Source: a phage. Taken from it: a stretch of 64,000 nucleotides of DNA. Position 1 is the stretch's first letter; each line of letters starts with the position of its first letter. The notes below the pieces were generated by a model. That model was given only the letters and a program-made list of their open reading frames with translations. It ran no database searches and was not told the origin of the DNA. This document shows positions 25,287-57,004 of this stretch, piece by piece. The position numbers were made by a program, and so were the translations under genes. The stretch lies in the sequence record PZ445536.1. One strand, given 5' to 3'.

Positions 25287-28200
25287 ATGGCTACTTTAAA
25301 ACAAATACAATTTAAAAGAAGCAAAACCGCAGGTGCACGTCCTGCTGCTTCAGTATTAGCCGAAGGTGAATTGGCTATAAACTTAAAAGATAGAACAATT
25401 TTTACTAAAGATGATTCAGGAAATATCATTGATTTAAGCATTTCCGCTGGCGGTAATATCAGTGGAAATGTAACTATTGATGGAACTTTACGCGTCAATG
25501 GACCAATAAACAATTTTGGAAATTTTTCCACAAGTGGCCAGATTACCGCTGGTAGTAGTATTTCAGCTCAAGTTTTTAGAGCATTGCAAGGTTCGTTTTA
25601 TACAAGAGCATCAAATGATGTCTCAAATGCCCATTTATGGTTTGAAAATGCCGATGGCACTGAACGAGGTGTTATATATGCTCGTCCTCAAACTACAACT
25701 GACGGTGAAATACGCCTTAGGGTTAGACAAGGAACAGGAAGCACCATTAATAGCGAATTCTATTTCCGTTCTATAAACGGCGGTGAATTTCAAGCCAATC
25801 GTATTTTAGCATCAGATTCGTTAGTAACAAAACGCATTGCAGCTGATACAGTTATTCACGGTGGCAAAGCCTTTGGTGTATATGATACGGATTCATTAGT
25901 TAACTACGTATACCCAGGCACCGGTGAAACTAACGGAGTAAACTATCTTCGTAAAGTTCGCGCTAAATCAGGCGGTACCATATGGCATGAGCTTTGTACT
26001 GCTCAATCAGGCCAAGCTGATGAAATGTCTTGGTGGACCGGTTCTACTCCTATTTCAAAACAATTTGGTATTCGTCATGACGGTCGGATGATTGTCCGCA
26101 ATAGTCTTGCATTAGGCACTATGACTACTGATTTTCCATCGAGCGATTATGGTAATGGTGGCGCATTAGGATTCGGTGCTTATTTGGCTCTAGGTGATAA
26201 CGGAACTGGTTTACGCTATCAAAAAACCGGTGTTTATGATTTAGTTGGTTCCGGATTGTCTGTTGCATCTATTACTCCAGATAGTTTCCGTAGTACTCGT
26301 AAAGCATTATTTGGACGTTCAGAAGACCAAGGCACCACATGGATTATGCCTGGAACGAACGCTGCATTTTTATCAGTTCAAACACAGGCTGATGAAAACA
26401 CTGCTGGAGACGGCCAGACGCATATTGGCTATAACTCAGGCGGAAAAATGAACCACTATTTCCGTGGTAAAGGCAAAACTAATATTAATACTCAGGAAGG
26501 TATGGAAGTTAATCCGGGTATTTTGAAATTGGTAACTGGCTCTAATAATGTAATGTTTTATGCTGATGGCGGTATTACATCTGTTAAGCAGCTTTCAATA
26601 TATAATGGCATATATTTAGCAGCTAATAATTCTACTGCTGGGCTAACATTCGCTCCAACTACTACAGTTGATGGTACTAAGCAAATTTTGTGGGAAGGCG
26701 GTACTCGTGCTGGGCAGAATAAAAGCTATGTAACTGTTAAAGCGTGGGGTAATTCATTTAACGCATCTGGCGATCGTTCCCGTGAAACAGTTTTTGAGGT
26801 AGGTGATGGGCAAGGTTACCATTTTTATTCTCAACGTGTAGCTCCTGCGCCTGGTTCGACTGTCGGGCCTATTCAACTCCGAGTTGATGGTGGTTTATTA
26901 ACTTCAGGTAGTATTGTTGCTTCTGGTTCTATTACAACCGAATCTTCTTTGAGTGTTAATAATGGCATGTCAGTAAACGGACAAGCTAAATTCGGTGGAA
27001 CTGCTGATGCATTAAGAATTTGGAATGCCGAATACGGTGCTATTTTCCGTCGCTCAGAAACAGCATTACATATTATCCCGACTCCCAAAGATGCCGGTGA
27101 AAGTGGTGGAATAAGTAATCTCCGCCCACTTAGTATTAGTCTTAATAATGGTATGGTACAAATGCGCCATTCTGTTACGTTAGGCGATGATGGCGCTGGC
27201 GGTAATATGATTACTGTGGACAACGATACCAAACTTGTTGTTGTTACTAGTAATAGTCGCATTTCTCCTAATTACCGTATGCAGGTAGGACAAGCAGCTT
27301 ATATTGATGCTGAATGTACTGACACAGTTCGCCCGGCTGGTGCAGGGTCTTTTGCTTCACAAAATAATGAAAACGTTCGTGCTCCATTCTATATGAATAT
27401 TAATCGCACAGATACAAGTACTTACGTTCCTATTTTGAAACAGCGATATGTCCAAGGAAACAGTTGTTATTCTCTGGGAACTCTAATTAACGGCGGTAAC
27501 TTCAGAGTTCATTATCATGAAGGCGGCGATGGCGGTTCGACTGGCGCTATTATAAAGGATTTAGGTTGGGAATTTACCAAAAATGGTGATTTTATATCTC
27601 CTAAGCGTGTTTCTGCTGGGGGTTCAGTTTATTTAGGTACAGACGGCAATATTACAGGTGGTTCTGGCAATTTTGCTAATTTAAACAGTACAATTGAATC
27701 ACTTAAAACCGATATTGTATCGAGTTACCCAATCGGTGCTCCTATTCCATGGCCAACGGATACTCCTCCTGACGGTTACGCTATTATGGAAGGCCAGACT
27801 TTTGATAAGTCTGCATACCCAAAATTGGCTATGGCTTACCCATCTGGCGTAATTCCAGATATGCGCGGGCAAACTATTAAAGGTAAACCAAGTGGTCGAG
27901 CTGTATTAAGCGCAGAAGCCGATGGTGTTAAGGCTCATAGCCATAGTGCATCGGCTTCAAGTACTGACTTGGGTACTAAAACTACGTCGAGTTTTGATTA
28001 TGGTACTAAGACGACAAGTAGCTTTGACTATGGCACTAAGACTAGCAATACCACAGGTAACCACTCTCATACTGTAAGCGGTACTACGAGTTCTGCTGGT
28101 GCACACCAACATGCGCGCTCAGGTCCTCAGTTACAAGCCGGCATACCCAATAACATATTCTATGACGGATATAATAGTGTAGGTGCAAACGCCAACGCTA

Positions 28201-28481
28201 AAATCACCGGATCTGTGAGCGGTGCTACTGCAGGGTCGAATATAGCCAAAACTTCTTCAGACGGTGCTCATACCCATACTTGGTCTGGTACTACAAGCAC
28301 TACAGGTAACCATGCTCACACAGTAGGTATTGGTGCTCATACCCATACTGTAGGTATCGGTGCTCATACCCACACGGTAGCAATTGGCTCGCATGGTCAT
28401 ACTATCACTGTAAATAGTACAGGTAATACAGAAAACACGGTTAAAAACATCGCTTTTAACTATATCGTTCGTTTAGCATAA
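25287..28481 (+). CDS. 37: gp37 long tail fiber distal subunit (receptor-binding tip with His-box)
   Basis: 1064 aa; C-terminal HxH repeats ([36 protein letters not shown]) typical of the T4-type gp37 needle; shares VFEVGD..HFYSQR box with gp34. Confidence 0.9.
27972..28031 (+). repeat. tandem 30-nt coding repeat ([10 protein letters not shown] x2, partial third) in gp37
   Basis: Direct repeat read from sequence with synonymous differences. Confidence 0.75.
28323..28403 (+). repeat. tandem 27-nt coding repeat x3 (VGIGAHTHT His-box units) in gp37
   Basis: gtaggtattggtgctcatacccatact repeated with 2-3 substitutions. Confidence 0.8.
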
Positions 28482-37072: not shown

Positions 37073-38010
37073 TTATTTAAATTGTTCAGTAACGTCTTCA
37101 ACTACTTCGTATTGGCAGGTACGCATTTTAGCATCGTTGTAATCAATCGGAATTGATACTACATCACGCGGATGTACTTTAACTTTTACGACTCGGCTGG
37201 TTGAACTGCCAAAGTGACGAATATAAGATTTAGAACACACATGCAGACCACGAGAACAAGTTTGTGTATCATCGTCATTCACACGAGTACGTGGCATTTT
37301 AACTACTTTACCCGGACTGTTATCAAAGGTGTTTGAGTGACAGTCAAAGTAATTGCTGCGAACTACTTTCCAAGCATAGAAGTAACCATCTTCTGTAATT
37401 TCAATATCGTTTGCTACCAAGAAATCAAAGAGTCGAGATACCGCTTTTTGGCTTGGGTTTTCCAGCAGATTTTCCAAGAACGGAAAATAAAATTCAAAGT
37501 TTTCGCCTTTTTCCATCGAATCAAGAATACGATCAACTAAACCAGACCGCAATTCAATATTTTGATAGAACAAGCTTCCACCTTCAATTCGAACATCGCC
37601 GGAAATATATTTTTCAACAGCGCGACGAACATTAATTTTTGTGCAGCTTCTTCCAGCTTATCTGTTACAAGCAGATTAAGAATTTCCTGGAAGTTTGAAT
37701 GAGTATTAGGAGTTGCGTTATAAGTTACACCCTCAACAGTAATTGAAATGAATTTTTTAGATGCATTCCAAATAATGTCAGATTTAGCAACTGGAGCAAT
37801 AACTGCATCGCTATTAACTTTAACTGTAATATCACCACTAATAGTAACTTTAGGGCGTTTAGCTTCTTCAGCATTTTTCAAAACACGACGGATTGTGTCA
37901 ACCGATACATCCTTCCAATAAGCTAATTCCTGCTGAGTGTAATTACCACTTGAATACAGTTTAACAATTTCAGCTTGTTCGTTTTTGGTCAGGCATTTAA
38001 TATTGTACAT
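37073..38010 (-). pseudogene. rIIB: rIIB, split by an apparent -1 frameshift in an A5 run (two ORFs 37537..38010 and 37073..37573)
   Basis: N-terminal ORF begins MYNIKCLTKNEQAEIVKLYSSGNYTQQELA (rIIB); reading frame shifts after ...LEEAAQK at coding-strand CAAAAATTAATG (+ strand T-run 37636-37640); restoring one A gives a continuous ~312-aa protein (...AAQKINVRRAVEKYISGDVRIEGGSLFYQNIELRSGLV...). Confidence 0.8.
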
Positions 38011-45173: not shown

Positions 45174-45668
45174 TTAATTAAGGATATTAATTACTGCACT
45201 GCGTGGAACTACACTAAAATCACCTGCATGAACAACGTTCAGAAGTTCAACACCATCTTCAAGCCACTGGTCAGTTACCCAACCACTTACTGGACCAGCA
45301 AATGGTCGACGAATTGAAACAGCTTTACACAACAAGTCAGTAGGCTCGATAGGCTTAACCAGAGTACCGTACATACAAGCGATATCCATATCAATACAGA
45401 TGTCTTTAACGGGTTCTACTTCTTCAATCAACAGTTCAAAGTCGGTGCTTGGAAGGGCGGTAGTAGAAATTGTACCGTATGAATTTTTAATTTCTAAGAA
45501 TAACCAAGGGCCTTCAGCTTGTTTGATGAAGTTAACAATAGTGAAACTATTACCTTGAGTGGCGCCTAAAATTTCACAAAACTTTTCATAAGCTCGCACT
45601 GAAGCACCATACCAGTTGATTTGTTTTTCGTCTTTCAGGATGTAAGTAGCTGTAGTACTGATATTCAT
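45174..45668 (-). CDS. hypothetical protein, tandem paralog C (164 aa)
   Basis: Divergent N-terminus but shared C-terminal GWVTDQWLEDGVELLNVVHAGDF motif. Confidence 0.6.
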   Translation of the reverse strand: MNISTTATYILKDEKQINWYGASVRAYEKFCEILGATQGNSFTIVNFIKQAEGPWLFLEIKNSYGTISTTALPSTDFELLIEEVEPVKDICIDMDIACMYGTLVKPIEPTDLLCKAVSIRRPFAGPVSGWVTDQWLEDGVELLNVVHAGDFSVVPRSAVINILN

Positions 45669-45680
45669 GATGTTTTCCCC

Positions 45681-49914: not shown

Positions 49915-49932
49915 GAATCTAAGTCCTTCCCA

Positions 49933-50535
49933 TTATAGATTAAATCCTTCAAAATCAAGAGTATAGATAGTATATGTTGAATACTTTTTATACTCATATC
50001 TATCTGCAATTCTAAATACACTTCCAGCTGGTATCATTACTTCTTGTTCATCTGAAACTAATTCCATATTACGATAACGATGGCTATCCGGAAACTTAAA
50101 GTTTGGATTGTATTCTTTACAGCGTAGAGCTTTTATAGCATACTCCTGGAAATTGAATACCATAGGAGCTTTGAATTCAAAAATAACCTGTGTGTTATAC
50201 TCTAAACCGGAAGCAAAATGTAGAGCTATATTTTTATCATATGAAGCTGATACTACTTTATCAAATGTAATAATATCAATTCCTTGATTTAATATTTGTT
50301 TAGTCTCGACTGGAACACCTCTCCAAAGAGGTTTATCGTTTGGAACCAAACGAGATTTGATTATTTCATTTAACCAAGTATGGTCATCTGGCTTATTAGT
50401 AATACAATGAATTAAAAGTTCAATTTCAGATAAATTAAACCCTTCAGAAAGTAATTCTTCACGAATAGAAGCACGCACCGATGCATCCATTGATTTTATT
50501 TTAAAATCTTTTAGTTGCATTACTGAGTATTTCAT
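49933..50535 (-). CDS. modA: ModA ADP-ribosyltransferase
   Basis: 200 aa (T4 ModA length); R-S-E ART motifs (LWRG, VVSAS, EQEVMIP). Confidence 0.8.
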   Translation of the reverse strand: MKYSVMQLKDFKIKSMDASVRASIREELLSEGFNLSEIELLIHCITNKPDDHTWLNEIIKSRLVPNDKPLWRGVPVETKQILNQGIDIITFDKVVSASYDKNIALHFASGLEYNTQVIFEFKAPMVFNFQEYAIKALRCKEYNPNFKFPDSHRYRNMELVSDEQEVMIPAGSVFRIADRYEYKKYSTYTIYTLDFEGFNL

Positions 50536-51157
50536 TCAACTACCTCAATATCATAAACTTTAAATGTTCCAAATGAATCGTGTAATTTTTCTTTTGAAAT
50601 AGAAGTTATTCTATACTTTCCAATTGGAATCATCCATTCTTGTTCACGCACAATCATCATTAAGTTATCAGTACGCTCTGAATCTAGCCCATCAGTATCT
50701 TCATACGTGTACTTGAACTCAGTATTAGGAGAAGAAAGTATAATATCGCTGATATGGTCAGAATAATTAAAAGCTTTATCAGTTTTTAAGCGAAGTATTA
50801 TTTTAGTAAAATATTCAGCATAAGAAAAAGAACATGCTGTGAGTAAACTAGTAGTAAATGAATCTACTCTGTTCGTTGAAAACACTTCTCCAACTTGTAA
50901 ATCTTTTTAATAAGTTCTTCTGTTGATTTTGATATACCACGATATAGCTGATAAGGTGATTTAGTTAAATGCTTTTTAATGATTTTATTCAATTGCCGAT
51001 GAAGAGCTTCATTCTTTTTAGCTTCCATACATTGCCAAAGAACAGACTGCTCAAAATCAGTAAATTTTTCACAGACCTTTTTATACATATCATATTGAAA
51101 ATCGACGCTTTCAGCTTTTATAGATAACTGTTCAACATCTGCAAGATTAATAATCAT
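50532..51157 (-). pseudogene. modB: ModB ADP-ribosyltransferase, split by an apparent -1 frameshift in an A5 run (ORFs 50864..51157 and 50532..50885)
   Basis: N-terminal ORF carries the R motif (QLYRGISKS) and ends at 50864; overlapping ORF carries STS-like (VFSTN) and catalytic EQEWMIP motifs; coding-strand run ATTAAAAAGATT (+ strand T5 50904-50908); one extra A would give a continuous ~207-aa protein. Confidence 0.6.
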
Positions 51158-51183
51158 GATAGCCTCCGTATACTTCAGAAGCT

Positions 51184-51213
51184 ATCATATCATCGTTAGA
51201 AAGGAAAGTAAAC
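51184..51213 (-). promoter_or_regulatory. T4-type early promoter (GTTTAC, 18 bp, TATGAT) upstream of modB
   Basis: rc gtaaac 51208-51213; rc atcata 51184-51189; GGAGG SD before the ATG. Confidence 0.5.
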
Positions 51214-56368: not shown

Positions 56369-56417
56369 ATTAACCTTTATTCATAAAAGCATTAAAAATT
56401 TGATCGTCAATAGAAAC
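56366..56417 (-). repeat. 52-nt duplicated gene-end cassette (copy 2)
   Basis: See 56008-56059. Confidence 0.7.
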
Positions 56418-56786
56418 TTTTACTTTAGGCTGTTCTTCAAACGGTAATTCATATCCACATATTACAATTTTGTGATCGATACCAAAATACACAGAAGCAA
56501 TATGATTAATGATGTTTTCAGTAAAGTCTAAATTAACATCAATATCTTTTTGACCACAGCCCAAAGGATAAATAATGCGAGTAATTCGATTATCTTTAAC
56601 AAATATTCCACCGACATACTCTGTGCTGCGTTTAAAGTTTACACGTTTCCTAAATGAAAAATATTCAGGTTCTTTATGGGCTCGACTCATAGGGCTTAAA
56701 GTGTATTCCGAATATGAAATATCAAATCCTACACCTTCAATATGAGCCAAAGTGTCATGATTAAACCAATTATAATCGTATGCCAA
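56370..56786 (-). CDS. hypothetical protein, paralog 2 (138 aa)
   Basis: GGIFVKDNRITRIIYP core and SIDDQIFNAFMNKG C-terminus. Confidence 0.6.
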   Translation of the reverse strand: MAYDYNWFNHDTLAHIEGVGFDISYSEYTLSPMSRAHKEPEYFSFRKRVNFKRSTEYVGGIFVKDNRITRIIYPLGCGQKDIDVNLDFTENIINHIASVYFGIDHKIVICGYELPFEEQPKVKVSIDDQIFNAFMNKG

Positions 56787-57004
56787 ATATCCATTAAATT
56801 GTAATATGTGAAAGGCACCGGATTAACATCATATGTTGTACCTTTAAAATCTGCCCAGGCAACGATTTCGTTATCTTTAACAATTACAAAAATTGTGCCA
56901 ATAAGATATCCACGGTTATTTTCATCAGGCGTTATATTATAACATTGTGCATCAGGAAATTTACCGTATTTAAACGGTGGATTTTTGTGCATATAATAAA
57001 TCAT
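56729..57004 (-). CDS. hypothetical protein, truncated paralog 3 (91 aa)
   Basis: GTIFVIVKDNEIVA core similar to paralogs 1-2 but lacks the shared C-terminus; overlaps next ORF by 58 nt. Confidence 0.45.
   Translation of the reverse strand: MIYYMHKNPPFKYGKFPDAQCYNITPDENNRGYLIGTIFVIVKDNEIVAWADFKGTTYDVNPVPFTYYNLMDIWHTIIIGLIMTLWLILKV

Follow-up and report, generated by a model that had tools for sequence, protein, structure and literature searches.

A 2-base tandem insertion interrupts the modB gene of a T4-like phage, lengthening an AAA run on the coding strand to AAAAA (A3 to A5) after codon 84 and shifting the reading frame by a net −1. We recommend annotating the locus as a modB pseudogene that carries a frameshift and has A3 as its ancestral state. 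The window, by which we mean the whole 64,000-nucleotide stretch of phage DNA analysed here, is, judged from its sequence, a segment of a Tequatrovirus (T4-like) genome. The 901 bases round modB matched 503 phage records, nearly all of them Tequatrovirus, at 90–99% identity. Over its final 24 kb, the window is ~96–97% identical to phages such as GiZh and Aplg8, and the phage collection searched held no near-identical record for these 24 kb. The surroundings of modB follow the T4 order (srd, modA, modB, modA.2, modA.3, all on the minus strand), and the neighbours modA.2, modB, modA and srd are common to the window, T4, GiZh and slur03. Elsewhere, GiZh gives a poor alignment or none for positions 25475–28311 and 45347–45673, of which one corresponds to the distal tail-fibre gp37/gp38 region and the other is close to motB. 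Mosaic replacement of this kind is typical of T-even phages.

The modB locus is occupied by two minus-strand ORFs that overlap by 22 nt (Table 1), as the original prediction had described. They match consecutive parts of a single profile, phrog_832 ('RNA polymerase ADP-ribosylase'), with the N-terminal ORF covering profile positions 1248–1332 (E = 3e-15) and the C-terminal ORF positions 1331–1438 (E = 8e-20); the full-length homology reaches E = 2.6e-41. The ADP-ribosyltransferase motifs run across the two ORFs in the order that had been claimed, LYRG in the first and FSTN and EQEWMIP in the second, so that the R-S-EXE residues R73, S93 and E171-x-E173 are all encoded in the modB DNA but are divided between two reading frames. 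Homologs show one 207-aa gene, in agreement with the proposed combined length of ~207 aa, the size of T4 ModB, and the reported T5 on the plus strand at 50904–50908 and the intact 200-aa modA beside the split gene were both confirmed. All modB homologs found carry PF26816 (Mod_ADP_RT). Neither our local Pfam copy nor NCBIfam gave a match for modB, intact ModA being likewise unmatched, and a PDB sequence search returned chance matches only. An uninterrupted ORF of ~207 aa able to give active enzyme is absent from the modB of the window. By descent and position the locus is modB, a member of the Mod_ADP_RT family, and as written it reads as a pseudogene.

Table 1. Features of the modB region and other frame-split genes in the window
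Feature	Position	Strand	Remarks
modB, disrupted	50532..51157	-	626 nt here, 624 nt in relatives
N-terminal ORF of modB, 97 aa	50864..51157	-	84 native ModB residues and 13 out-of-frame residues, KIYKLEKCFQRTE
C-terminal ORF of modB, 117 aa	50532..50885	-	FSTN (S93), EQEWMIP (E171-x-E173)
A5 run on the coding strand (T5 on the plus strand) with private 2-base insertion	50904..50908	-	A3 in relatives
modA, intact, 200 aa	49933..50535	-	Own GAGG 7 nt upstream
Promoter-like site TTTACT-17-TATGAT with TG, upstream of modB	51184..51212	-	From a consensus scan
Inverted repeat pairing the -10 region with the modB Shine-Dalgarno sequence and ATG	51155..51189	-	Identical in T4
rIIB ORF, 157 aa	37537..38010	-	
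rIIB ORF, 166 aa	37073..37573	-	
Gene 61.2 (adfA), split	56370..57004	-	91-aa and 138-aa ORFs

Alignment with related phages identified the nature of the lesion. At the junction the window reads ATTAAAAAGAT (A5), whereas every relative examined reads ATT AAA GAT (A3); viewed by codons, CTT ATT AAA GAT in relatives corresponds to CTTATTAAAAAGAT in the window. In the DNA alignment (mean column identity 99%, with one 2-base gap only), slur03 and 303Ecol101PP read CTTATTAAAGAT with A3 at this point. The A3 state also occurs in the eight relatives whose modB was located by our junction script (L001, L002, L005, L006, L008, L009, L012 and L013), GiZh shows the same 2-base gap against the window, and T4 ModB has ELIKDLQ at the junction in the protein alignment. 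Because all aligned relatives read A3, the change is a 2-base insertion and not the loss of one base from an A6 run that had been proposed; the window has two A's more than its relatives, not one fewer. The suggested alignment to ModB of related phages thus upheld the idea of one gene split by a frameshift and moved its ancestral state from A6 to A3.

The choice of repair follows the same distinction. Adding one A, the correction first put forward, does restore a frame, but the product has 208 aa and an extra Lys (ELIKKDLQ) found in no relative, and we rejected it. Deleting two A's instead gives a 207-aa protein that is identical to slur03 ModB at 207/207 positions and 96% identical to T4 ModB. 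No second, compensating indel was present in the alignment of modB with slur03 and 303Ecol101PP. Since the six DNA differences from slur03 are all synonymous, modB was under purifying selection until very recently; the 207/207 identity after repair means in turn that the lesion is either very recent or an assembly error.

The modB lesion is private to the window genome. A 49-mer spanning the A5 junction gave zero megablast matches among the 50,697 phage records of INPHARED, and its best full-length blastn matches (47/49) carry the A3 state, with no A4, A5 or A6 variant ranking higher among 498. In IMG/VR, we found neither the A5 junction by exact pattern nor any 1–3 base insertion at this junction by gapped pattern; the A3 version, our positive control, was recovered from the same collection. 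Pattern scans of metagenome contigs and GTDB genome contigs did not find the A5 junction. The exact truncated products of modB, rIIB and adfA, the latter two encoded by genes that are also split in the window, have no entry in a 153-billion-gene index.

ModB, an early arginine ADP-ribosyltransferase dependent on NAD+, also joins NAD-capped RNA to ribosomal proteins S1 and L2. Translation of the window from the normal modB ATG gives residues 1–84, then KIYKLEKCFQRTE, and ends at a premature TAG (50864–50866); R73 is kept, and the S-T-N and E-x-E catalytic motifs are out of frame after the insertion. Such a product would hold 84 native residues, including R73, and 13 wrong ones, and the catalytic remainder would lie in another frame behind no good start signal. 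No active ModB enzyme would be expected, and as written modB is a predicted null. ModB is the enzyme for which an R-S-EXE motif was named, and the R73A substitution abolishes both its ADP-ribosylation and its RNAylation activity (PMC10468400). T4 with catalytically dead ModB is viable, at a 4- to 12-fold lower yield (PMC10468400), and most genes of this early region are not essential in laboratory hosts (PMC2988021).

Full-length ModB might still be made from the broken gene by a +1 or −2 ribosomal frameshift, or by transcriptional slippage on the A5 run, although we consider such recoding very improbable. A shift window does exist: the C-terminal frame is open directly after the A run (from just past a TAA at 50907–50909), and the zero-frame stop lies 42 nt downstream. 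Within it, a GGAG precedes UGU UUU C, at which tRNA-Phe might re-pair in +1. However, rescue calls for a shift of +1 or −2 instead of the more usual −1, an in-frame X XXY YYZ heptamer is absent, and UUU is not followed by a slow, rare or stop codon at the +1 site; no slippery motif suited to a +1 or −2 shift was found in this stretch of modB. An A5 run is also shorter than the runs known for efficient transcriptional slippage. Since intact modB genes natively have the GGAG..UUUC context, it was not selected for recoding. The lesion is private, and no relative examined encodes the shift; a conserved shift site or a shared split architecture was absent among them, and no A4, A5 or A6 variant occurred among ~500 phage records.

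It is hardly credible, and to our minds close to negligible, that the two ORFs are naturally separate genes or encode a split enzyme whose halves reassemble. Both halves have remained open reading frames, as such a design would require, but split modB occurs in no relative examined, T4 included, and those checked have one 207-aa gene. The break falls between R73 and the S-T-N motif, within the catalytic domain. The second half also lacks a proper start: the one start codon listed for it, a GTG, comes only 2 nt after GGAG, a spacing that makes independent expression of the C-terminal ORF unlikely.

modB is one of several broken genes in the window. We aligned the window to GiZh, listed all indels, and then compared the 102 GiZh proteins with the window by tblastn. 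Exactly 3/102 shared genes are frame-split, namely rIIB (−1), modB (+2) and 61.2/adfA (+2). The break in rIIB is an A6 to A5 change on the coding strand (plus-strand T5 at about 37636–37640, with the change placed at about 37641) relative to GiZh and QOTSP, and the same A5 state occurs in the deposited phage vB_Eco_EH2 (OZ034684), in which rIIA is likewise annotated as split. If the rIIB break is real, the phage should be an r mutant unable to plate on lambda lysogens. The remaining split gene is 61.2, for which phage Ec_O157kw carries the annotation 'anti-DarT factor A' (adfA). Its frame is interrupted by a tandem duplication of AT at 56789–56790 (ATGGATTTGG to ATGGATATTTGG), outside any homopolymer. 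This duplication is the sole difference from Ec_O157kw across 671 nt, and its removal restores an identical 210-aa protein. Two further length changes relative to GiZh, at window 35684 (+2, T5 to T7) and 62897 (−2), fall at the extreme 3′ ends of an ndd.5 homolog and an imm-region ORF; they resemble ordinary end variation, with tblastn coverage of ≥93% in one frame.

These breaks bear on the earlier suggestion that two independent A6-to-A5 lesions reflected homopolymer undercalling. Only rIIB is an A6 to A5 change, and the modB lesion, a +2 expansion of an A3 run, does not fit undercalling as its cause. The third break, in 61.2/adfA, lies outside homopolymers. Counting A/T runs in the window gave 64 of at least 6 and 336 of 5, and with so many runs more genes should be broken if undercalling were general; yet of these 400 just one run, that in rIIB, is length-discordant within genes shared with the reference. 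We therefore rejected general homopolymer undercalling.

A more specific artefact of sequencing, consensus building or assembly is a serious possibility, although we stop short of calling it probable. In the phage itself modB would then read A3 and be intact, with base calling or polishing as the source of both additional A's. Long reads of glucosyl-hydroxymethylcytosine DNA are a possible cause. The breaks in rIIB and adfA would be similar errors. Such an origin is suggested by three private frame breaks within 64 kb, each the sole protein-level defect of an otherwise conserved gene, and by the absence of all three truncated products from the gene index and of the modB lesion from every other sequence searched. 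The loss of ModB is, in addition, costly in T4, as the 4- to 12-fold drop in yield indicates (PMC10468400). The −1 change in the A6 run of rIIB is a textbook undercall that recurs in the vB_Eco_EH2 assembly, with its split rIIA. That recurrence cuts both ways, because A6 runs in rII are reportedly classic hot spots of spontaneous frameshift, as Pribnow et al. are said to have described in 1981; a review that we examined does not treat the rIIB hot spots at the level of sequence. Changes from A3 to A5 and from AT to ATAT are, by contrast, atypical of homopolymer errors, no further shared gene is broken despite the many A/T runs, and the window contains zero ambiguous bases.

On balance, we lean towards a true, very recent mutation in modB. 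Homopolymer length miscalls do not usually take the form of two bases gained in an A3 run. Expansion by +2 in a three-base run is, for its part, rarer than a one-base change in a long run. Within 5.2 kb round modB, the window has 17 private substitutions versus 2 private indels; this 17:2 ratio is an ordinary natural one, and we count it in favour of a real mutation. We also count in its favour that rIIB, modB and adfA are all dispensable in laboratory hosts. That all three lesions fall in non-essential genes is weak evidence in itself, with p ~0.3 by chance if, as a rough estimate, ~2/3 of the coding sequence is non-essential. In published work, rIIB frameshifts arise readily in T6 and are selectable (PMC10312443), and deleting adfA from T4 gives no phenotype against DarTG1 (PMC11257639).

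A real lesion in modB may have arisen by strand slippage, or by misalignment on an identical copy of the 9-mer ATTAAAAAG located 69 nt upstream within modB. The 9-mer made by the lesion occurs 7 times in the window, counting both strands, and support for templating is therefore weak and post hoc. As a general cause, templated misalignment was rejected, since adfA and rIIB have only chance-level 7-mers and the idea does not generalize. The modB lesion would have become fixed while the phage was isolated, or propagated on a permissive laboratory host, under relaxed selection, and the same account would cover the rIIB and adfA lesions.

The ATG of the neighbouring modA overlaps the modB stop codon (ATGA, 50532–50535). 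modA keeps its own ribosome-binding site, a GAGG 7 nt upstream of the ATG, and is for this reason expected to be still translated. Its level could drop through lost coupling to modB translation or through transcriptional polarity. The exact ModA protein occurs in 61 blocks of the public gene index, and among the 10 places listed, all 10 have an intact 207-aa ModB directly upstream. At position 49931, two bases past the modA stop codon, the window has one private extra base (plus-strand C2 to C3); this insertion is intergenic, has no coding effect and is missing from 14 relatives. At the other end of the locus, the promoter-like site upstream of modB has the same sequence in T4. The RNA at the modB 5′ end (window 51145–51200) folds with −20.8 kcal/mol (z = −5.9). 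In transcripts that start further upstream, the predicted hairpin would occlude the modB start site; transcripts from modB's own putative promoter would miss its 5′ arm.

In modB we see a known gene that was either knocked out very recently or miscalled, an ordinary event with nothing new in kind. If the lesion is real, this isolate would be a natural T4-like ModB null, without RIIB and AdfA as well, a possible control strain for ADP-ribosylation and RNAylation work, and a reminder that accessory early genes decay fast in culture. Were all three frameshifts real, the phage would offer a natural ModB-null background for RNAylation studies. A bolder proposal, that the rIIB, modB and adfA/61.2 frameshifts are all real and that the phage has shed three host-manipulation or counter-defence genes, possibly under selection by hosts whose defence systems sense these proteins, strikes us as improbable. 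RIIB is sensed by bacterial gasdermin/CARD defence systems. If the lesions are artefacts, three sites must be corrected in the sequence before it is annotated. The practical value in either case is a correct modB annotation, with no new biology implied.

Among known systems, the three lesions are all gains or losses of repeat units (AAA to AAAAA in modB, A6 to A5 in rIIB and AT to ATAT in adfA), and in this they resemble Streisinger slippage and the rII mutants of T-even phages. The window locus shares its length, its neighbours and its ATGA overlap with modA with the gene for T4 ModB, the R-S-EXE arginine ADP-ribosyltransferase and RNAylase (NP_049636, 207 aa, PF26816), but its frame is broken after codon 84, leaving a 97-aa fragment without the S and E-x-E motifs. 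The gene for slur03 ModB (YP_009625229), unlike that of the window, has the A3 junction and an intact ORF. The engineered T4 ModB(R73A,G74A) is a viable ModB-null phage (Wolfram-Schauerte et al., Nature 2023, PMC10468400), and its lower burst and a lysis ~20 min late are the phenotype to be expected here if the lesion is real (PMC10468400). By design, the ModB of that mutant is inactive but full-length, whereas the ModB encoded in the window is truncated.
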